From the NCBI GenBank assembly GCA_964616145.1, contig CAZTRD010000003.1:5892-69891 (forward strand): 64,000 nucleotides of DNA, read 5' to 3'. The DNA comes from an uncultured Candidatus Saccharibacteria bacterium. Its GTDB lineage: Bacteria > Patescibacteriota > Minisyncoccia > Minisyncoccales > PEYH01. The translations under genes and the position numbers were made by a program. The notes below the pieces were generated by a model, which worked only from the letters and a program-made list of their open reading frames with translations, had not been told where the DNA came from and made no database searches. Below are positions 1-27,334 of this stretch, piece after piece. Each line of letters begins with the position of its first letter. The first letter of the stretch is position 1.

Positions 1-264
1 ACTCTACGCGAAAGAATTGCTCAAACTGGTTATTGGAAGATAAAACTTGCTTCCGATGAAGCAACAAAACATATTAAAGTTTATTTTGTAACTCCCGATG
101 AAGACGGAACATTAACAATGAAAATACCCGCCAAGAAGGGGCGGGCAATTGTTGAGATAGATACAGATGGTAGTTATGTTTTAAGCGAAACAGATATTGA
201 AGAAAGTAATAAAGTAAAAATGTTCGATAAATTTATTGATGACTTAAAAAAACTTTTGAAGTAA
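1..264 (+). CDS. C-terminal end of an uncharacterised protein (5' part outside the window)
   Basis: Frame 1 is open from base 1 to TAA at 262-264 (...KMFDKFIDDLKKLLK*). The stop lies 4 nt before the ATG of the OLD-family gene, suggesting co-transcription. No motif recognised in the 87 visible residues. Confidence 0.45.
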   Translation, partial: TLRERIAQTGYWKIKLASDEATKHIKVYFVTPDEDGTLTMKIPAKKGRAIVEIDTDGSYVLSETDIEESNKVKMFDKFIDDLKKLLK

Positions 265-265
265 G

Positions 266-2047
266 TTGATGAAAATTTCTCATGTGAAAATTCATAACTG
301 GCGTTCCATAAAAGATCTCGATATTGATTTTAATGATATAATGATTTTTATAGGACAAAATAATCATGGCAAGTCGAATATTTTATCTGCCTTATTGTTT
401 TTTTTCGGCGAAACAAGTTGCACTGAGTTAGATTTTAACAAGGATAGCGAAGATTTATTCGTAGAAATCGAATTTAGAGATCTTGATGAACACGATAAAT
501 CGCAATTTCAGAAGTATCTAACCATAGAAAATCATATTAAAGTTAGAAAGCAGATTATAAAAGGATGTAATTTTGAATATCATGGATATCGCGAAATACC
601 GCAGGAAGATTATTTGAAGGAAGAAAAAATAAGTGACCTTACGATAAGAGATAAAATAAATTCTACGCCGTTAAGAAATTTAATTCCCGTTACTGGCAGA
701 GTAACAAAAGAGATTGTAAAGGAGGCTCAAGAGAAATATGTACAAGATAACAAATCACACCTTTCTTTTCGATATGACCTAGAAACTACAAACTTTTTAG
801 GGCTAAAGACTGTAGCACAAGGGATTTTTGGAAATGTTTTCTTTATTCCAGCGATTAAAAATGCAACAGAGGAATTTAATGTTAAAGGGAAATCTATCTT
901 TAATCAACTTTTGTCTAATGTTATCAACGAAATGTCCTCGAGTAATCAGCAATATATCAACGCCAAAGAGAAAATAGTAGAATTAACGCAAACTTTAAAT
1001 AAAAATATCTCAAATGGCTCATTAAATGAAAATAGACCAGAACAGATAACTCGACTTGAAAAGATAATTGAGGATGAACTAAAGAAATGGCACACAACAA
1101 TCAATATTGAGATAACGCCACCAGACATAGATGAAGTTTTGAAGGTTGGTACATCGGTATGGGTTAATGATGGTGTACCAACAGATGTGATCAGAAAAGG
1201 ACATGGTTTACAAAGGGCTTTAATTTTTGCCTTACTAAAGGCATGGTCGAATATTTCCAAAGAAATAAAACAAAAAGAAAAACAGTTTGCCGAGGAAAAA
1301 TCAACAAGAGAGGCATCTGAATCAAATTATTTTATATTTGAAGAACCTGAATTATATTTACATCCACAAGCACAAAGGGAATTGTTTTATTCCCTTAAAA
1401 AACTTTCACAGGTCAATAACCAAGTCCTATTATCTACTCATTCAAGCTATTTCATTGACCTTGAAATGTATAAATCCATCTGCAAGGTTTATAAAACCAA
1501 TGTGAACGAAGGAAGTAAAGTCTTACAATGTATGGAGGACTTGTTTACCCTTGATGATGATAAAAATAATTTCAATATGTCATACTGGATAAATCCCGAT
1601 AGAGGAGAATTATTCTTTGCGGAAAAAATCATTTTAGTTGAGGGACCCACCGACAAAACCATTATTCCTTATTTAGCTAAGAAACTATCCATTTTTAAAT
1701 ATGAATATACTTTGATAGATTGCGGTGGAAAAGATAATATTAAAATTTATATTCACCTATTGAATAAATTCAAATTGCCCTATATTGCAGTTTACGATAA
1801 GGACAACCAAACCATAAAAGATCTTAATGCAATAAAACTCGCTAATAAATCATCCAGAGAGATTAAAAATGCAATTAACGATGATTTTGGTAAGTCAATT
1901 ATTTTTGAAAATGACATAGAAGAAGAAATTGGCATTGTTGATGCTTCCAATAAGAACAAACCGTATTTCGCCTTAAAACATGTTTCGAACAATAGTTTTG
2001 TTGTATCCAATAATTTAAAAAATAAAATTGAAGAAATTTTTAAATGA
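266..2047 (+). CDS. OLD-family ATP-dependent endonuclease (ABC/AAA_15-type ATPase + C-terminal Toprim)
   Basis: The N-terminus MKISHVKIHNWRSIKDLDIDF..IFIGQNNHGKSNILSAL combines a RecF/SMC-like start with a Walker A. 'YFIFEEPELYLHPQAQ' is the Walker B/D-loop and 'LLSTHS' the H-loop. The C-terminal 'IILVEGPTDKTIIPYL ... YIAVYDKDN' fits Toprim E...DxD. The true start is probably ATG 269 (TTG 266 in the track). Confidence 0.8.
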   Translation: MMKISHVKIHNWRSIKDLDIDFNDIMIFIGQNNHGKSNILSALLFFFGETSCTELDFNKDSEDLFVEIEFRDLDEHDKSQFQKYLTIENHIKVRKQIIKGCNFEYHGYREIPQEDYLKEEKISDLTIRDKINSTPLRNLIPVTGRVTKEIVKEAQEKYVQDNKSHLSFRYDLETTNFLGLKTVAQGIFGNVFFIPAIKNATEEFNVKGKSIFNQLLSNVINEMSSSNQQYINAKEKIVELTQTLNKNISNGSLNENRPEQITRLEKIIEDELKKWHTTINIEITPPDIDEVLKVGTSVWVNDGVPTDVIRKGHGLQRALIFALLKAWSNISKEIKQKEKQFAEEKSTREASESNYFIFEEPELYLHPQAQRELFYSLKKLSQVNNQVLLSTHSSYFIDLEMYKSICKVYKTNVNEGSKVLQCMEDLFTLDDDKNNFNMSYWINPDRGELFFAEKIILVEGPTDKTIIPYLAKKLSIFKYEYTLIDCGGKDNIKIYIHLLNKFKLPYIAVYDKDNQTIKDLNAIKLANKSSREIKNAINDDFGKSIIFENDIEEEIGIVDASNKNKPYFALKHVSNNSFVVSNNLKNKIEEIFK

Positions 2048-2050
2048 ATT

Positions 2051-2731
2051 ATGAAGATTGAATCAACAACACTTTGGGATTTCCCTAGACAAAATTATGG
2101 AGATAAACCACATGGAAATAATAAATATAATGGCGTAACACCAGCCTTTGTTATTTGGAATTTATTGCAAAGATACACAAAAGAGAATGATCTGGTCGTT
2201 GATCCGATGTGTGGGAGTGGAACAACGATAGACGTCGCGAAAGAATTAAACCGAAAAGTAATCGGCTATGATTTGAACATTGTCCGTCCCGATGTTATTA
2301 AAAATGATTCTCGGAAAATTCCTCTCGGAGATAACTCTGTGGATTTTGTTTTTATTGATTCGCCATATTCTGATAATATTAAGTACTCAGACGACGAAAG
2401 GTGTATCGGTAAAATTTCCTGCGAGAAAACGGAATTTTACGACGAATTAGAAAAAACTGCTTCAGAAATCGTGAGAATTTTGAAACCAGGTAAGGTCGTA
2501 GGTTGGGTTATCGCCGATCAATGGATTAAAAGAAAATTCACAGCAGTTGGATTTTTATTGTGGCAAAGATTAGAAAAATATTTTGAGCCGATGGACATAA
2601 TTTGTTTAACTCGTCATAATCAAACATCGAACACAGAAGTTTGGCATAATAGAGCAAGACAATTTAATTTTTATTTGAGAGGGTTCAAATATTTATTTAT
2701 AATGAGAAAACCTGAAAAAGAAATAGTATAA
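2051..2731 (+). CDS. Small SAM-dependent methyltransferase, N4/N6 DNA-methylase-like (motif I before motif IV)
   Basis: 'LVVDPMCGSGTTIDVAKELNRKVIGYD' is the FxGxG SAM-binding motif I in the context typical of PF01555-type DNA methylases. 'VFIDSPYSD' is a (D/S)PPY-like motif IV about 50 aa downstream. The gene starts 3 nt after the OLD gene stop. At 226 aa there is no obvious target-recognition domain, so an RNA substrate cannot be excluded. Confidence 0.6.
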   Translation: MKIESTTLWDFPRQNYGDKPHGNNKYNGVTPAFVIWNLLQRYTKENDLVVDPMCGSGTTIDVAKELNRKVIGYDLNIVRPDVIKNDSRKIPLGDNSVDFVFIDSPYSDNIKYSDDERCIGKISCEKTEFYDELEKTASEIVRILKPGKVVGWVIADQWIKRKFTAVGFLLWQRLEKYFEPMDIICLTRHNQTSNTEVWHNRARQFNFYLRGFKYLFIMRKPEKEIV

Positions 2732-2748
2732 TTTTTTCAGAAAATGTA

Positions 2749-4134
2749 ATGGAAAATAATCATTCTACAGAAAAAATTATATCAGTCTCAGAATATATAG
2801 ACCTCCTAAACAATGTTTTAATAAATATCTCTGCTAAGATGATTGGTGAGGTCGGAGAGGTCGGCACGGATGCAAAAGGTCATGTATATTTTTCTATGCG
2901 GGATGAAAAGGATAAAAGCGTTATAAGATGCATCATGTGGGCTAGTAAATATACAATGTTTGGTATCAAACTAGAAGAGGGAATGAAGGTTATAATCCAT
3001 GGTCATTCTGATATCTACAAACCGAAGGGTTCTCTTTCGTTTATTGCAGATACAATCGAATTAGCGGGGGAGGGCGAATTAAAACGAAAATACGAAGCAT
3101 TAAAGAAAAAACTTTCAGAAGAAGGTTATTTTGACAAAGAGAGAAAAAAGACTATTCCTGCGTATGTAAAAAATATTGGAATAATTACTTCAAAGCAGGG
3201 CGCTGTTTTAGGTGATTTTTTAAGCAATGTAGGAAAACACGGATTCAATATTAAGTTAATAGATTCAAGAGTAGAAGGAGCAGAAGCTATACCTGATTTA
3301 TTATCTTCAATCAAAATATTCAAAAAAACTAACATTGAAGTTTTAATAATTATGCGAGGAGGCGGTTCTTTTGAAACATTGCAAGCCTTCAATAACGAAC
3401 TCCTGGTAAAGGAAATAGTAAATTTTCCAGTACCAGTTATTGCAGCGATAGGCCATGATAGAGATGTGCCTTTAATATCTATGGCCGCTGATCTGGAATT
3501 ATCAACACCCAGCATGGCTGTTCCAACATTAAATCGACCATGGGAACAAGCAGAATCATTATTAGAAAGAAAGACAACTAATATTTTTAATAGATATATG
3601 AATTTATTGGGCAATACAGAATATTCAATTGAACAATTTCTCAACAATATAATCACCAGTATAAATAATATATCGGAAAAATATAAAGAAATTCAGAATA
3701 AAATTTTTATTTCCTTCCAAATCTTTAAAAATAATTTAAATAATTTTAAACTAAAATTAGATAATTACCTACAAAGATCAATCAAGGAATTCTCCTCTTT
3801 GTTGTCTTCTGTAGATCCAGTAAAAAATATGGCTTTTTGTCTTTCGGTATTTCCAAAAAATCTAGAAATGTTTAAATACAAAATAGATAACTCGTGCAAA
3901 TCTTTAATTAATATATTTTCTGATATATTTTCCAATATTTCTCATAATTTATTAAATTTTGAAAGTATTATAAATAATAATAATCCTGAACGACAACTAA
4001 ACTTAGGCTATAGCATAGTAACCGTTAAAGGGAGAGTAATAAAAAGCATTAAAGATGTTAGCATAAATCAAGAAATAAATGTTAAAATAAAAGACGGCGA
4101 TATTATTTCAACTATTAAAAATATTAATAAATAA
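2749..4134 (+). CDS. xseA: Exodeoxyribonuclease VII large subunit
   Basis: N-terminal OB-fold region (GEVGEVGTDAKGHVYFSMRDEKDKSVIRCIMW). Core motifs 'IGIITSKQGAVLGDF', 'RGGGSFETLQAFNNE' and 'AIGHDRDVPL'. Long helical C-terminus. Followed directly by xseB. Confidence 0.85.
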   Translation: MENNHSTEKIISVSEYIDLLNNVLINISAKMIGEVGEVGTDAKGHVYFSMRDEKDKSVIRCIMWASKYTMFGIKLEEGMKVIIHGHSDIYKPKGSLSFIADTIELAGEGELKRKYEALKKKLSEEGYFDKERKKTIPAYVKNIGIITSKQGAVLGDFLSNVGKHGFNIKLIDSRVEGAEAIPDLLSSIKIFKKTNIEVLIIMRGGGSFETLQAFNNELLVKEIVNFPVPVIAAIGHDRDVPLISMAADLELSTPSMAVPTLNRPWEQAESLLERKTTNIFNRYMNLLGNTEYSIEQFLNNIITSINNISEKYKEIQNKIFISFQIFKNNLNNFKLKLDNYLQRSIKEFSSLLSSVDPVKNMAFCLSVFPKNLEMFKYKIDNSCKSLINIFSDIFSNISHNLLNFESIINNNNPERQLNLGYSIVTVKGRVIKSIKDVSINQEINVKIKDGDIISTIKNINK

Positions 4135-4138
4135 AAAT

Positions 4139-4387
4139 ATGGCAGAAAAACCAAAAGAAGAAAACTTAAATGAAAATTTAAAAAGATTATCAGAAATAGC
4201 TGATTGGTTTGATGATATGGGAGAGATAGATGTAGAAGAAGGACTTAAAAAAGTTAAGGAAGCCTCTATCCTTATAAAATCAAGCAAACAGAGGCTAAAA
4301 GAAATAGAGAATGAATTTGAAGAAATAAAAAAAGATATAAACATCGAAGAAGACAAGGAACCAGAGGATAAAAATATGCCTTTCTAA
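4139..4387 (+). CDS. xseB: Exodeoxyribonuclease VII small subunit
   Basis: 82-aa helical, acidic protein (LNENLKRLSEIADWFDD.GEIDVEEGLKKVKEASILIKSSKQRLKEIENE) with the XseB pattern. Starts 4 nt after xseA. Confidence 0.75.
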   Translation: MAEKPKEENLNENLKRLSEIADWFDDMGEIDVEEGLKKVKEASILIKSSKQRLKEIENEFEEIKKDINIEEDKEPEDKNMPF

Positions 4388-4469
4388 CAAAACCACATTA
4401 AAGAAATGTATTTGTAATAATTACTTTTTCTAGGCATTTTAATATAATAAACATAGACAACTAAATACT

Positions 4470-4582
4470 TAATTATCAAGAGAGACGGTGAGAGATTTGG
4501 CTCTGCGATCCGCCCAGCAACCCTTAAAGTCGACTGCTTTAAGAAGGTGCTAAATCCAAACCCATAAGGGAAAGATAAAAGG
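4470..4582 (+). promoter_or_regulatory. SAM-I (S-box) riboswitch aptamer
   Basis: UUAUCAAGAGAGACGGUGAGAGAUUUGGCUCUGCGAUCCGCCCAGCAACC ... AAGGUGCUAAAUCC ... CCCAUAAGGGAAAGAUAA matches the S-box core (AUCAAGAG, GGC..GAU..CC.GCAACC, GGUGCUAAAUCC). P1 pairs UUAUC 4473-4477 with GAUAA 4574-4578. Confidence 0.8.
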
Positions 4583-4602
4583 TCGATTTTTAATTAAAAC
4601 AG

Positions 4603-4632
4603 AACCTCTTTCCCAAAAAGAGGTTTAAATTT
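4603..4632 (+). terminator. Riboswitch expression platform: terminator / SD-sequestering hairpin
   Basis: AACCUCUUU (4603-4611) pairs with AAAGAGGUU (4617-4625), which contains the SD (AAGAGG) 8 nt before ATG 4634; UAAAUUUU follows. The alternative anti-terminator GGGAAAGA (4568-4575, overlapping P4 and the 3' strand of P1) is perfectly complementary to UCUUUCCC (4607-4614). This is the classic SAM OFF-switch logic. Confidence 0.65.
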
Positions 4633-4633
4633 T

Positions 4634-5059
4634 ATGAACTCAAAAGAATATAAGAATACAGTAAATAAAGATGTTAGATATACCTTTATTCCCAAATGCC
4701 TGAGATTAGAAGGATTATCGGAATATAATAACATGCCATTTAATGTTATGTTCCAAGAATTCATTACTGAAAATGACAATCTTCTTTCGGCAACTGCGAT
4801 ATACGAACCAAGCTTCTCAACATTCAAAACAGAGGGAAATATCTGTTCAATGATGTACAGAAACGCATATGGCAATGATTCATGGCTGAAAATCTCCTAC
4901 GATAACAATGAAAATATTTGGCATGGATCAAAAATAGTTGACGGCAAATGCATAGGAAAAGCATTTGGCGCTAATTGGAAAATGTTTTTTATCCATTTTA
5001 CAACTTTAGGATTATCTAATGGAGAAAAATGCAAACTAGAAAAATTGTTAATAAATTAA
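4634..5059 (+). CDS. Uncharacterised 141-aa soluble protein directly controlled by the SAM-I riboswitch
   Basis: Its ATG lies immediately after the riboswitch SD hairpin. The ORF is uninterrupted, with no family motif recognised and no TM segment. Confidence 0.6.
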   Translation: MNSKEYKNTVNKDVRYTFIPKCLRLEGLSEYNNMPFNVMFQEFITENDNLLSATAIYEPSFSTFKTEGNICSMMYRNAYGNDSWLKISYDNNENIWHGSKIVDGKCIGKAFGANWKMFFIHFTTLGLSNGEKCKLEKLLIN

Positions 5060-5084
5060 ACAAATAATTAAAACAGCAGAATAT

Positions 5085-5260
5085 GTAAAGCGGGGGAATC
5101 CGGATAGAACATGCTAGATTATTGCTGATTTAATATTAGACGAATATCTGAAGCAAGATCTATATTCCAGAGAGCACTAGAGGTATTTGGCAGCCATGAT
5201 TTGATTACTATCGCAGGAGAAGTAACGGGCAGGGGATTTAAGAATTATGATCGGCTATGC
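5085..5260 (+). pseudogene. metK: Decayed N-terminal fragment of S-adenosylmethionine synthetase
   Basis: From 5085 the translation reads VKRGNPDRTC*IIADLILDEYLKQDLYSR, compared with the MetK consensus V(S/T)EGHPDKICDQI(S/A)D.ILDE.LK.DP.(A/S)R. After a frameshift at about 5170 it reads RALEVFGSHDLITIAGEVTG (RVACET...G....AGEITT). After a second shift it reads RIMIGYAKK (..IKEIGY). There are two in-frame stops, two frameshifts and an internal deletion, and the remaining ~1 kb of metK is absent. Confidence 0.65.
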
Positions 5261-5363
5261 TAAAAAAATCCTGAATTACTACCAATGGAAACGGTTTTAA
5301 CTAAAATCATTTAACTTTACTTAGGCAGTTTTTGTGTTAGAATTAGAATAATATATAAAAAAT

Positions 5364-6620
5364 ATGAATAAAAAAATCTTACTGATTAGTTTAATCATTC
5401 TTCTGCTTGCCGGCTTTGCCACAGCTTCATTATTAATGTTTCCTTATCATCCAGACGAACCACCGCTAGCAGATGATACCGGATCAACGCAGAATGGTAT
5501 TGAAGCAGTAGTAAATGCCAATAATCAATTTGCTTTTGATGTATATTCTGAATTAAGCAAATCAGAAACAGGCAATATCTTTTATTCCCCTTATAGCCTA
5601 TCCGCTGCCCTGGCTATGACATATGAGGGAGCTAATGGAGAAACTGCCGCGGAGATAAAATCAGTTTTGCATTATCCTGAAATTGATATCTTAAGGCCTA
5701 ACTTTGCAGCAATTTATAATGATATTAATAAGGAATCAAAGGATAATATATTAAAGACAGGCAATGCATTATGGGTCCAGCAGGATTATCAATTGCTTCC
5801 TGACTTTCTAACCCGGGTAGAAAGTTATTACGGAGGAAAAGCAACCAATCTTGATTTTGTTGAATCCTTAGAACCGTCTAGAAAAACTATTAATGCCTTT
5901 ATTGCCGGACAAACCAATAACAAGATTAAAGAACTAATTCCTCAGGGAATCCTTGATGCCATGACTCGGTTGGTTTTAACCAACGCTGTCTATTTTAAGG
6001 GAACTTGGGAATGGCAATTTGAACAATCCAAAACTTTTACTGACGATTTTAAGGTAAATGACAATACCGTAGTTCAGGCCGAAATGATGCGTATGAAGCC
6101 TGACAAAACGACGTTTAATTATGCTAATACTGATAGCTGGCAGATTCTGGAATTGCCATATAAAGGAGATGAAATTTCAATGCTGATTCTTTTGCCGACC
6201 AGTAATCTTGATAGCGTTGAAACAAAGCTAACAGCAGAAAATCTTAATCAATTAAAATCTGAATTAAAAGAAACTAAATTAGATTCAATCATTCTGCCAA
6301 AATTTGAATTCAATTCCAAGTATTTTATGCAAGAAGCATTAAGCGCTATGGGCATGCCTACTGCTTTTTCTCCATCGGCGGATTTTTCAGGGATGACAGG
6401 CAATAAAGATTTGCTTATCGATTCTGTTATTCACGAAGCCTATATCAAAGTAAATGAAGAGGGAACCGAGGCGGCAGCTGCTACTGCTGTTACAATGAAA
6501 TTAACAGCCATTAGTCCGCAAAATGTTTTTAATGCCGATCATCCATTTATCTTTTTAATCCAGGATAAAGATAATGGCAATATCCTGTTTCTAGGCAGGG
6601 TAGTTGATCCCACTCAATAA
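5364..6620 (+). CDS. Serpin (serine protease inhibitor) with N-terminal signal/anchor helix
   Basis: 'NQFAFDVYSEL ... NIFYSPYSLSAALAMTYEGANGETAAEI' is the serpin N-terminal signature. The inhibitory-type hinge/RCL is 'NEEGTEAAAATAVTMKLTAISP' and the C-terminal signature is 'FNADHPFIFLIQD'. The N-terminal KKILLISLIILLLAGFATASLL is hydrophobic. Confidence 0.9.
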   Translation: MNKKILLISLIILLLAGFATASLLMFPYHPDEPPLADDTGSTQNGIEAVVNANNQFAFDVYSELSKSETGNIFYSPYSLSAALAMTYEGANGETAAEIKSVLHYPEIDILRPNFAAIYNDINKESKDNILKTGNALWVQQDYQLLPDFLTRVESYYGGKATNLDFVESLEPSRKTINAFIAGQTNNKIKELIPQGILDAMTRLVLTNAVYFKGTWEWQFEQSKTFTDDFKVNDNTVVQAEMMRMKPDKTTFNYANTDSWQILELPYKGDEISMLILLPTSNLDSVETKLTAENLNQLKSELKETKLDSIILPKFEFNSKYFMQEALSAMGMPTAFSPSADFSGMTGNKDLLIDSVIHEAYIKVNEEGTEAAAATAVTMKLTAISPQNVFNADHPFIFLIQDKDNGNILFLGRVVDPTQ

Positions 6621-6637
6621 TTTAACATAAAGATAAC

Positions 6638-7768
6638 ATGAATAACATCTCAGATAAAATTATAGAAATGAGCTTTCCCAAATTAATAGTAGTGGCTATA
6701 ATTATTACTGTAATAATAGTGATAATTGCAAAGCTGGCCCAAAAAGCCAAGAGGGCCAAGGCAATAGCCAGCCTGAATGCTTCCTATGCAAAAACTCCGT
6801 ATCTGGCAGAAACTGATTTAGTTAAAGAATTGGGTTATCAGACTAATGCCGGCGATGAATCGCTTTTCCCTTCCGCAAGCCAACCGGCCGAAGAAATTAG
6901 TCTCAAAACTTATCAAGATCCAGAAGAAAAATTAGCTGATTACCGTACATTTGATTTTGATTATACTAATAAAGACAACCCGCTTCTTGAAAAAGAGCTT
7001 TTTTTGCAGTTAGAAAAAATACTCGCGCGTTATGGCCTAACCCGTGTTAAAAAGAATCCGCAGGCAGTCATTAGTATGAATTTTTTCATTGGTAAAAAAG
7101 AGCAATATACTCCTCCAACCACAGTAATAAGCACAGAAACTCAGTATGTTTGGAATACTGGCTTTATTGGCTGGAATATGGGAGGATTTACTTCTGCCAT
7201 ACCGATTACTAAATCAACCACCACTCCAGGATATACCACCATTAGCTATTACACCAATATCCGCATTAATATTTTAAATCATGCTAAATTATCATCAGGC
7301 AAGAAACCAGAAACTCCGCCATTAGTCTGGCTAGGCGAAGCTGACAGCGAAGGACCAAATTCTGATATTCGCTTCATTGCGCTTATAATGTTTGAAGCTC
7401 TGGCCAGCCATTTATCTAATCAGCCATTGGCAGTTTCAAAATTTTTAGTGTGCCGTTTCCGTTATGGAGGATTAGGATTGGGATTTGACCCAAACGATTG
7501 GCGCATAATCCGCTATATCGAACCATCTTCAATTGCAGACGATAATAATCTCAAACCCGGGGATATCCTGATTAAAATTAATGATAATAGTCCCAGCCGA
7601 GCTTTTACGGCTTCTAAAGATCAAAACCCGTATTTCCTGCATGTTCTATCTAATCCCGGCAAATCAGATGTAAAATTATTAATCAAGTCAGGGGCTACCG
7701 GTAAAAAAATATCACTTTCTTTAAAGCCTCGTTTAGAAAATCGCTATGTGAGAGTTGACGATAAATAA
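6638..7768 (+). CDS. Membrane-anchored protein with C-terminal PDZ-like domain
   Basis: N-terminal TM helix (FPKLIVVAIIITVIIVIIAKL). The C-terminal 'GLGLGFDPNDWRIIRYIEPSSIADDNNLKPGDILIKINDN' looks like a PDZ carboxylate-binding loop and core. The middle region is unassigned. Confidence 0.5.
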   Translation: MNNISDKIIEMSFPKLIVVAIIITVIIVIIAKLAQKAKRAKAIASLNASYAKTPYLAETDLVKELGYQTNAGDESLFPSASQPAEEISLKTYQDPEEKLADYRTFDFDYTNKDNPLLEKELFLQLEKILARYGLTRVKKNPQAVISMNFFIGKKEQYTPPTTVISTETQYVWNTGFIGWNMGGFTSAIPITKSTTTPGYTTISYYTNIRINILNHAKLSSGKKPETPPLVWLGEADSEGPNSDIRFIALIMFEALASHLSNQPLAVSKFLVCRFRYGGLGLGFDPNDWRIIRYIEPSSIADDNNLKPGDILIKINDNSPSRAFTASKDQNPYFLHVLSNPGKSDVKLLIKSGATGKKISLSLKPRLENRYVRVDDK

Positions 7769-8128: not shown

Positions 8129-8644
8129 GTGATGGGAGAGAAGAAGGAGCACTTCGACGCTGTAACCTTGGCTTTCGTAGCCATCGCCATCGCCTGTGCC
8201 ATCTTCGGCAGTCTGGCCGCAGGGCTTATCCCTGCCAGAGAAGCGGGATTCGCCCTACTATCGTGGGCTGCTACTGGTCACGTGATCACGCTGATCTGCG
8301 TCATCATCCAACACGAGACCAACGCAGCTGTCGTACTCTTCGTCTTCATGGGCTTCTGGATCTGCGCTGGACTGGGTCTCAGCTTCTTGTCATCGCATGG
8401 ACTGCACAGGCTTCTGATGGTGATCGAGCCCACGCTGCTGGCTATCACCTTCCTGTGGCAGTTCTTGTACCGGAACAAGCGACAGCTGAGGTGCGTTCTC
8501 CTAGGCTTGGCCTGGGTAATCCTATGGCTCTTTGTCTCCAAGTTCATTCCCCAGTTAGGCGTGATGACGCCATACTGGGTGTGGGCTCTGGGCCTCTATC
8601 TGCTTCTATTGGCATTCTGGCGAAGACTGCACCCGGCAGGATAG
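8129..8644 (+). CDS. High-GC cassette A: 171-aa polytopic (about 6 TM) membrane protein, no recognised family
   Basis: GC jumps to ~55 % (hand count). AAGGAGGA lies 7 nt before ATG 8132 (GTG 8129 in the track). Codon third positions are G/C-rich. Six hydrophobic stretches are present (e.g. VTLAFVAIAIACAIFGSLAAGLI, AAVVLFVFMGFWICAGLGLSFL). Confidence 0.7.
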   Translation: MMGEKKEHFDAVTLAFVAIAIACAIFGSLAAGLIPAREAGFALLSWAATGHVITLICVIIQHETNAAVVLFVFMGFWICAGLGLSFLSSHGLHRLLMVIEPTLLAITFLWQFLYRNKRQLRCVLLGLAWVILWLFVSKFIPQLGVMTPYWVWALGLYLLLLAFWRRLHPAG

Positions 8645-26393: not shown

Positions 26394-27334
26394 CAATTCA
26401 CGGATTCTACGACACCATCATTATCGGAGGAGGACCGGCGGGAATAACTGCCGCTCTTTACGCTGCCAGGCAGAAAATGAATGCTTTAATCGTTACCAAG
26501 GCATTCGGAGGACAGATTACAAGAAAAGTTACTCCGGTAGAAAACTGGCCGGGCATAGTTCAGATAACAGGAACTGAATTGATTCATAATTTTCAGAAAC
26601 ATTTAAGAAGACATAAGATTGATATTGAGAGAGACGAAGTTTCAAAAATTAAAAAAGTTAAAAACTATTTTTGCATTACGACAAAAAGTAAAAATCATTT
26701 TAAAACATACTCGGTAATTGTAGCTACTGGAGCAGACCCAAGGCAATTGGAGGTTGAGGGAGAACAGCATTTTGTCGGCAAAGGGGTCAGCTATTGTCCT
26801 TTATGCGATGGTCCTTTGTTTTATAATAAAGATGTGGCTGTAATTGGAGGAGGGAATTCTGCTTTGGAAGCAGTAATACTATTATCTAAATATACAAAAT
26901 CTGTGACCATTCTTGAATCCCAGGATAAATTGGCGGCTTTTAGGGATCTGCAGGACAGGGCAATGGCTACAAAAAAGGTAAAGGTATTGACTAATATAAA
27001 AGTATTAAAGATTGAAGGGAACAAAACAGTAGAAAAAATAATCTTTGAGGATAAGCTGACAAAGAAGAAAAAGGAATTGGCAATAGATGGAATATTTATC
27101 GAGATAGGGAATCAACCGGCAACATCCTTTTTAAAGGATTTGGTTGATTTCAGTAAAAAAGATGAGATAAAGATAAATCCGAGAAATTGCGAAACTAGAA
27201 CTGAAGGATTGTTTGCCTGCGGAGATGTAACAGATGTATTTCCAAAACAGATAGTTGTTGCTGCCGGGGAGGGAACAAAAGCAGCAGTCAATGCATATAA
27301 TTATGTACAAACAGTAAAAAATGCTGGGGCTTAA
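26390..27334 (+). CDS. trxB: Thioredoxin-disulfide reductase
   Basis: FAD motif 'IIGGGPAGITAALYAAR', redox-active 'CPLCDG', NADPH motif 'VIGGGNSALEAV' and C-terminal 'GLFACGDV'. Confidence 0.9.
   Translation: MTIHGFYDTIIIGGGPAGITAALYAARQKMNALIVTKAFGGQITRKVTPVENWPGIVQITGTELIHNFQKHLRRHKIDIERDEVSKIKKVKNYFCITTKSKNHFKTYSVIVATGADPRQLEVEGEQHFVGKGVSYCPLCDGPLFYNKDVAVIGGGNSALEAVILLSKYTKSVTILESQDKLAAFRDLQDRAMATKKVKVLTNIKVLKIEGNKTVEKIIFEDKLTKKKKELAIDGIFIEIGNQPATSFLKDLVDFSKKDEIKINPRNCETRTEGLFACGDVTDVFPKQIVVAAGEGTKAAVNAYNYVQTVKNAGA

Follow-up and report, generated by a model that had tools for sequence, protein, structure and literature searches.

The window analyzed here is a stretch of 64,000 nucleotides (nt) from an uncultured Candidatus Saccharibacteria bacterium (contig CAZTRD010000003.1, positions 5,892 to 69,891, forward strand; assembly GCA_964616145.1). 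It begins inside a gene cluster that is probably a horizontally mobile type II restriction-modification operon. The operon encodes a methylase (M1), a restriction endonuclease (R) and a second methylase (M2), in the order M1 - R - slot - M2, where the slot is the junction between R and M2. In the window, the cargo of this slot is a nuclease of the OLD family (hereafter OLD) that resembles the Class 1 OLD proteins.

The junction between R and M2 is an insertion slot

We scanned one genome per GTDB species with M2 as the seed and found 358 loci, the best 80 of which (81-95% identity) were fetched. M1 and R are at most 41 nt apart in 61 of the 62 complete cassettes, and more than 200 nt apart in one. 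The gap between R and M2 exceeds 200 nt in 36 of the 62, and its lengths fall into three groups: at most 54 nt (26 cassettes), 200-300 nt (18) and 0.4-2.3 kb (18). The main open reading frames (ORFs) within the filled gaps are all on the strand of the operon, start 1-13 nt past the stop codon of R and end 0-10 nt before the ATG of M2. Both flanks of the slot are highly conserved in DNA, with R ending in ...FIDDLKKLLK and a stop codon, and M2 beginning with M.IESTT.

Clustering of the inserted genes yields about 19 types of cargo. Among them are three different HNH proteins, a trypsin-like protease (Trypsin_2; PADLOC PDC-S45, 5e-102), an MBL-fold protein with a membrane protein (PDC-M48B), a Schlafen/AlbA_2 (SLFN_AlbA_2) protein with a partner (PDC-S50) and a Z1/ResIII helicase with a partner. 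Small proteins of 75-95 amino acids (aa) make up two further families, which match nothing in Pfam or PADLOC. About ten more proteins match no family; the unknown cargoes include proteins of 363 aa in L013, 327 aa in L018, 332 aa in L041 and 244 aa in L016. At about 90% identity of R and M2 to those of the window, cassettes can be empty, or can hold OLD, an HNH protein, AlbA_2, the protease or an unknown protein. Given that such closely related cassettes differ in their cargo, cargo turnover is fast. The R/M2 junction is therefore a recurrent insertion slot that is either empty or holds one of about 19 cargoes, many of which are of defense type.

The small-protein families are the commonest occupants of the slot. 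Proteins of about 95 aa occur in L017, L044, L061, L072, L077, L079, L081 and L083, and a family of about 92 aa in L039, L042, L070, L075 and L080. These 75-95-aa proteins could be regulators, antitoxins or minimal effectors. One cassette is disrupted (L029, 3970-8769) and consists of a helix-turn-helix (HTH) gene, a 98-aa fragment of M1, two inserted ORFs (468 and 304 aa) and an M2 that lacks its N-terminus. It ends with a 359-aa ORF whose N-terminus resembles ABC ATPases (MRISKLTINNFRC...GDNATGKTS).

Anatomy of the locus in the window

A sequence-only reading of the window had described three tightly spaced genes at its start. The two spacers, of 4 nt (265-268) and 3 nt (2048-2050), are present in the sequence and its ORFs, as are the OLD fold and the 226-aa methylase with its DPMCGSGTT and DSPY motifs. 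The same reading supposed that the window edge cuts a larger defense module. This proved correct, because a 13.7-kb piece of the parent contig (L001) contains the rest of R and M1 to the left. Where the two overlap, L001 and the window have the same sequence, and window position 1 corresponds to L001 position 5936. Its genes are ordered dnaX, tRNA-Gln(TTG), M1, R, OLD, M2 and xseA, with spacers of 4, 4 and 3 nt at M1/R, R/OLD and OLD/M2 (Table 1).

With dnaX and tRNA-Gln on one side and xseAB on the other, the cluster is a small islet among housekeeping genes, as the earlier reading had it. The xseAB genes form the housekeeping right-hand border of the inserted cassette and lie outside the system; xseA starts 17 nt past the M2 stop codon. 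The OLD ORF runs from ATG 269 to a stop codon at 2045-2047. The 593 aa stated earlier would result from a start at the in-frame TTG at 266, but homologs begin with MKI and 592 aa is therefore the likelier length.

Table 1 Features of the locus and its surroundings, with positions in the window unless L001 is named
Feature	Position	Strand	Remarks
tRNA-Gln(TTG)	L001 4127-4199		5′ of M1
M1, N6_N4 methylase, 422 aa	L001 4258-5526		DPFGGCGTT at residues 62-70, SPPY at 252-255
R, complete, 222 aa	L001 5531-6199		Pfam RE_BsaWI, 9.3e-33
R, 3′ end, residues 136-222 of 222 aa	1-264	+	Pfam RE_BsaWI; frame 1, 87 codons, TAA at 262-264
OLD, ABC ATPase and Toprim nuclease, 592 aa	269-2047	+	Pfam AAA_15, OLD-like_TOPRIM; cargo in R/M2 slot
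M2, second methyltransferase of the cassette, 226 aa	2051-2731	+	Pfam N6_N4_Mtase
Sigma-70-like promoter match	2675-2703 (L001 8610-8638)	+	11/12 (TTGAGA, 17 nt, TATAAT)
xseA	2749-4134	+	Pfam Exonuc_VII_L, 5.9e-58
xseB	4139-4387	+	Pfam Exonuc_VII_S
S-adenosylmethionine (SAM) riboswitch	4470-4581	+	Rfam RF00162, 55 bits (gathering score 44.4)
ORF, 141 aa	4634-5059		No Pfam match
Serpin (418 aa), 17 nt, then DUF4136 protein (376 aa)	5364-7768	+	Pfam Serpin in L001
ORF, 171 aa, very hydrophobic	8129-8644	+	Block of ~50% GC amid ~35% GC; no Rfam match there

M2 is conserved independently of OLD

R lies upstream of M2 in 71 of the 74 M2 loci with enough upstream sequence, and M1 precedes nearly always. 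By contrast, an OLD homolog is absent from all 80 fetched loci, which are the best of the 358. M2 is 94-95% identical to the window's M2 with or without OLD, and the M2 proteins of OLD-bearing cassettes do not form a separate clade. We also surveyed OLD, using 80 homolog loci from metagenomes and several more fetched by exact protein. OLD fills the slot in five independent contigs, and M2 follows it in all five. Only OLD homologs with at least 77% identity sit between R and M2, and no homolog with 71% identity or less carries M2 in the OLD loci surveyed. Two close homologs, in L090 (79%) and L168 (76%), lie outside the cassette.

These counts bear on the proposal of the sequence-only reading that OLD and M2 constitute a two-gene self/non-self system and a new class of OLD, in which M2 would mark host nucleic acid against OLD. 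The 3-nt spacer and the constant order of the two genes in the five OLD-bearing cassettes agree with such a pairing. However, the conserved linkage it predicts is confined to a single clade of close OLD homologs, the 80 M2 loci do without OLD, and about 18 other types of cargo adjoin M2 just as OLD does. We regard the pairing as extremely improbable. Instead, M2 is conserved independently of OLD, in the role of a second, probably DNA-directed methylase alongside M1 and R. The earlier reading would have abandoned its proposal for an rRNA or tRNA methylase conserved independently of OLD, or for OLD homologs without a conserved linkage to it. The independence was found, in a probable DNA methylase, and so was the lack of linkage, outside the clade of at least 77% identity. 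Its idea that the methylase follows restriction-modification logic survives in the role of M2 within M1-R-M2, although not as protection from OLD.

The two methylases

Motif I of M2, DPMCGSGTT, occupies residues 51-59 (nt 2201-2227). Motif IV, at residues 103-106 (nt 2357-2368), is D-S-P-Y and not the canonical x-P-P-Y. M2 matches Pfam N6_N4_Mtase (PF01555) with 1.6e-23 and 84.3 bits, against a cut-off of 26.7. In PADLOC, which the sequence-only reading had recommended, it matches MTase_II (PDLC03376; 3e-29, 100.6 bits), a model that agrees with it in length and in the order of its motifs. By BLASTP (4e-11), M2 and the catalytic core of M1 are homologous. M1 additionally has an insert of about 125 aa between motifs I and IV, which looks like a target-recognition domain and which M2 lacks. 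An AlphaFold2 model of M2 (predicted local distance difference test score, 76) is a single, bare Rossmann domain with no recognizable target-recognition domain.

Alternatively, M2 might be an RNA methyltransferase of the Trm11/RsmD (N2-methylguanosine, m2G) type that merely travels with the cassette. The best Foldseek match of the model is Trm11, the tRNA m2G10 methylase (E 9e-10, template modeling score (TM) 0.53), one source labels a homolog of M2 ‘TRM11 family’, and the order of motifs I and IV with no obvious target-recognition domain is compatible with this idea. On the other hand, the fold matches are to generic class I methylases with TM of about 0.5. The sequence scores of M2 are far over the Pfam threshold and favor the type II methylase model of PADLOC, its nearest solved sequences are DNA N4-cytosine and N6-adenine methylases, and, across many phyla, it is found strictly together with R and M1 on a mobile cassette. 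An RNA methylase is thus highly unlikely. Sequence family and context argue for a DNA methylase, which would belong to the restriction-modification system and not be an antidote to OLD.

Methylase cores that are colinear with M2 (28-29% identity, residues 5-203) occur in orphan ‘DNA adenine modification methylase’ genes in plasmid records H2-H15, for example at 26404-27294 of NZ_CP125877.1 (L171). Among the 753 matching plasmid records, 723 are conjugative, mainly from Enterobacteria and Vibrio.

The restriction endonuclease

The first gene of the window had been left as unknown. Its 87-residue fragment matches Pfam RE_BsaWI (5.8e-19) and is the C-terminus of a restriction endonuclease; the full protein reaches 112.9 bits against a cut-off of 26.2. 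A single-sequence search of PDB with R gave no match and a profile was required. The profile, made from 17 R homologs, matches BsaWI (PDB 4ZSF, 9.2e-5), aligning SSKvtlRER with SKtsiRDR. Residues E58, D114 and K134 of R align with the catalytic E92, D145 and K165 of BsaWI, and R138-E139-R140 (window nt 7-15) with R169-D170-R171. D114, K134 and the RER motif are invariant among the 17 homologs. R-(D/E)-R is the motif by which CCGG-family enzymes read CCGG (PMC4652773). To judge from these similarities, R is a type II PD-(D/E)XK restriction endonuclease of the BsaWI (CCGG) family, and its target likely has a CCGG core. In NCBIfam, none of the four proteins M1, R, OLD and M2 reached a family cut-off.

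The OLD protein

OLD is a single 592-aa ORF in which ATPase and Toprim are unsplit and whose neighbors are R and M2. It matches Pfam AAA_15 (3.3e-37) and OLD-like_TOPRIM (4.3e-18) and, in PADLOC, ‘Old’ (9e-74), with weaker scores for GajA and AriA. A profile of 25 OLD homologs finds the Class 1 OLD of Thermus scotoductus (TsOLD, PDB 6P74; 3.6e-33) ahead of GajA (2e-10) and the retron Eco8 OLD (9e-7). The match to TsOLD is mainly over residues 355-568 and the identity is low, but all the catalytic residues that PMC7049728 names can be placed in the profile alignment.

In the ATPase, Walker A K35, Walker B E358, D-loop H365 and H-loop H391 correspond to K34, E276, H283 and H310 of TsOLD. In the Toprim domain, E458, D510 and D512 (metal A) align with E377, D431 and D433, and D462, D549 and E551 (metal B) with D381, S478 and E480. 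The ATPase residues are invariant in the 25 homologs, and the catalytic residues overall are invariant or nearly so (alignment A1). In sequence, OLD thus resembles Class 1, and its catalytic residues are all intact.

We rejected several other classifications. Gabija, PARIS and retron systems do not fit, as L001 has no helicase gene or separate Toprim gene within 6 kb. The similarity to MADS is that of ABC ATPases in general, with NCBIfam MAD3 scoring 42.6 bits against a cut-off of 420.

OLD might also be a passenger without a role in defense, either a decaying selfish insertion or a repair or recombination factor tied to xseAB. The locus does adjoin xseAB, and one report (PMC12796447) describes an archaeal OLD-family ATPase with a non-defense role. 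Yet OLD is complete, with intact catalytic residues, in the four cassettes that hold the whole gene (78-100% identity). Furthermore, the adjacency to xseAB is not kept in other cassettes, whose flanks are unrelated, and other cargoes of the slot are of defense type. A mere passenger is accordingly very unlikely.

Horizontal spread of the cassette

The M1-R-OLD-M2 block is found in unrelated contexts. An HTH gene lies upstream in L002 and L167, and a serine recombinase further upstream in L002; two other OLD-bearing cassettes (L088 and L089) are partial contigs. Immediately before M1, 15 of 61 cassettes have an HTH gene resembling a controller; the cassette of the window has none there. The GC content of the cassette is 0.27-0.38 irrespective of that of the flanks (0.26-0.51). 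M2 is 81-95% identical over many bacterial phyla and one archaeal metagenome-assembled genome (MAG) in the best 80 of the 358 loci (L007-L086), with examples in L066 (the Altarchaeum MAG), L065 (Leptospiria) and L074. The independence of cassette and flank GC, together with hosts from many phyla, points to horizontal spread. This indicates that the spread was very wide and recent, barring contaminated MAG bins, as mobile DNA is easily mis-binned.

We found no evidence of a phage-borne cassette in IMG/VR or in the phage and plasmid collections: IMG/VR has no relative of R, and the collections have no close homolog of M2, the best having 31% identity. The flanks of OLD in its different contexts exhibit no DNA homology past the ORF, and the mechanism of transfer is therefore not inferable from them.

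The closest relative of the window's xseAB (73% identity; L173, 1518-6872) has no cassette upstream, and a helicase gene stands there instead. Its xseA (540 aa) has an extra HRDC domain, and the helicase encoded before it is a 1189-aa AAA_11/AAA_12 protein that also carries an MTES_1575 nuclease-like domain. In this lineage, the position in front of xseAB may be a variable defense spot. The xseA of the window is closest to Patescibacteria sequences.

Proposed function

We propose that the four genes M1, R, OLD and M2 are transcribed as one operon; no terminator was seen between them in a scan that is itself at chance level. The restriction-modification part would cut unmethylated incoming DNA at CCGG-containing sites and would methylate host DNA. 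By analogy with its relatives, OLD would be an independent second layer: once triggered, this Toprim nuclease would nick or degrade DNA, or cut tRNA, in an ATP-dependent manner. Among published Class 1 proteins, TsOLD and Vc OLD nick or degrade DNA, P2 Old cuts the anticodon stems of tRNAs, and abortive infection is possible. Embedding would give OLD co-regulation, co-transfer and stabilization through the addictive restriction-modification genes.

Several points weigh against this picture of the operon. The fold search with M2 does not discriminate between DNA and RNA substrates, the need for two methylases in one system is without explanation, and the model assumes that OLD acts independently of the restriction-modification genes. 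ORF calling in the related loci was mechanical. A scan for operon promoters is at chance, with 33 promoter-like sites against 30.5 expected. In R, residue A51 aligns with BsaWI K85, which contacts the outer W base pair, and T144 aligns with D175, the fourth catalytic residue of BsaWI, leaving no acidic counterpart there. Since K85 and D175 are unmatched, neither the specificity of R for flanking bases nor its fourth catalytic residue is certain. Finally, neither CCGG (147 sites) nor WCCGGW (57, with 22 expected at order 1) is depleted in the 64-kb window. The cassettes do not avoid the two sites either; across 61 of them, CCGG shows no depletion when compared with GGCC, GCGC or CGCG. The 4.4-kb cassette of L001 has no CCGG at all, but this is not general among cassettes, and the site-avoidance test says nothing about the specificity of R.

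Relatives of OLD also occur inside or beside other restriction-modification operons, of type I-like, IIS, IIG and III kinds. In L090, the homolog lies between an HsdM/IIG-like methylase and HsdS (790-6435), with flanking genes that also match mad2 and mad5 of MADS; in L164, it lies between type III-like Mod and Res (182-6701); in L121, it follows AlwI-like R and M genes. Homologs in L003, L006 and L169 are beside AlwI-like, Eco57I-like and 5-methylcytosine/DpnII-like genes.

These contexts lend some support to the main alternative, in which OLD works as a guard resembling PrrC in EcoprrI. OLD would be kept latent by R, M1 or M2, or would sense them, and would fire when a phage anti-restriction protein blocks restriction, as a back-up by abortive infection. 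Beyond the recurrence of OLD relatives in or beside at least four types of restriction-modification operon, known triggers of ABC-ATPase defenses are phage anti-defense proteins, namely RecBCD inhibitors (P2 Old), Ocr (PARIS, Gabija) and Stp (PARIS, PrrC). The 3-4-nt spacers suggest translational coupling and a fixed stoichiometry, and the PrrC/EcoprrI precedent is discussed in bioRxiv 10.1101/2024.01.29.577857. However, the same slot accepts unrelated cargo such as HNH proteins, a protease, an MBL-fold protein and a helicase, which means that OLD need not have a specific interface with R or M2. Moreover, close homologs (76-79%) occur in other contexts, including L168, in which no restriction-modification genes were called within 5 kb. 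The neighbors of OLD are mostly variable, with 157 of 229 neighboring ORFs being singletons in 84 OLD loci. We therefore consider the guard model doubtful, and favor an OLD that acts independently as cargo of the M1-R-M2 operon.

More distant OLD homologs (50-57% identity) occur in a recurrent module in which a 71-aa KTSC-domain protein, OLD and a protein of about 343 aa without a Pfam or PADLOC match all abut. We observed it in L006 (5786-8832) and also in L108, L110, L111, L118, L120, L123, L129 and L131. This module may be an undescribed multi-gene OLD system.

Comparison with known systems

Defense genes embedded in other defense systems are already known, and the locus is a type II instance of this phenomenon. 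The classic case is PrrC, which lies inside the type Ic restriction-modification system EcoprrI. A guilt-by-embedding study (bioRxiv 10.1101/2024.01.29.577857) used Hma, BREX, DISARM and type I restriction-modification as host systems, and in the literature searchable here embedding is described only for these. As in that study, where 96.7% of embedded genes share the orientation of the host system, a defense-type gene is nested co-oriented in another system, and the cargo varies among homologous hosts. PDC-S45, PDC-M48B and PDC-S50, which the study defined from genes embedded in other defense systems, are common to it and to our slot, and ABC-ATPase/Toprim proteins (HEC-01 and HEC-04) are among its embedded genes. 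By contrast, M1-R-M2 is a compact host of type II that has two methylases, insertions occur only at the R/M2 junction with near-zero spacers, and the locus is known from sequence alone.

The Class 1 OLD proteins (P2 Old, TsOLD, Vc OLD of Vibrio cholerae and E. coli YbjD) are described as single genes that are not near other defense genes (PMC10568477). OLD shares with them a single polypeptide of about 590 aa that unites ABC ATPase and Toprim, all ATPase and two-metal Toprim residues are kept, and TsOLD is its nearest solved structure. There is no GajB/UvrD helicase downstream, no retron reverse transcriptase or noncoding RNA, and no split of the gene. Unlike these proteins, the OLD of the window is not solitary, as it lies 4 nt after R and 3 nt before M2.

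R shares the RE_BsaWI domain, the E/D/K residues and R-(D/E)-R with the BsaWI/CCGG family of type IIP/IIF enzymes (NgoMIV, Cfr10I, Bse634I and AgeI; PMC4652773). It differs from BsaWI in its length (222 aa versus 272 aa) and in being accompanied by two methylases.

In this last respect the operon resembles DpnII, a type II restriction-modification system with two methyltransferases, DpnM and DpnA. In both, a single operon unites one endonuclease with two amino-methyltransferases, of which the second is small. The M1 and M2 genes, however, flank R and the slot, and M2 has motif I before motif IV and no recognizable target-recognition domain.

Other features near xseAB

Of the sigma-70-like matches in the region, the best falls within the 3′ end of M2 and is 46 nt upstream of xseA. 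The xseAB genes may be driven from inside the inserted cassette, with the caveat that the promoter scan overall is at chance level. Just downstream of xseB, a SAM riboswitch precedes a 141-aa ORF. The serpin gene and the DUF4136 gene that follows it are an unusual pair for a probable Patescibacteria genome. The 171-aa hydrophobic ORF may encode a recently acquired membrane protein.

Implications

The survey removes the proposed OLD-methylase class as a false lead and gives the locus a concrete anatomy. It extends the embedding pattern to a type II host with a sharp, single-junction slot and high cargo turnover. The slot also yields uncharacterized candidate defense genes, mostly from uncultivated groundwater lineages and lineages of the candidate phyla radiation (CPR). 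The definition of Class 1 OLD as solitary is called into question, as Class-1-like OLD proteins are repeatedly nested in several types of restriction-modification system, and the idea that OLD is a back-up to restriction becomes directly testable.

A bolder and rather speculative interpretation, which we think unlikely, is that M1-R-slot-M2 is a promiscuously transferred carrier of defense effectors. The conserved 3′ end of R and 5′ end of M2 could serve as recombination arms for exchanging cargo, and the downstream position of M2 would force read-through and extend addiction to the cargo. The dozen or so cargo proteins without a family would then be new anti-phage genes, and OLD would, like PrrC, be a guard that is set off by the inhibition of restriction. 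If this is true, losing or silencing the cargo would be costly, since the protective methylase lies downstream.

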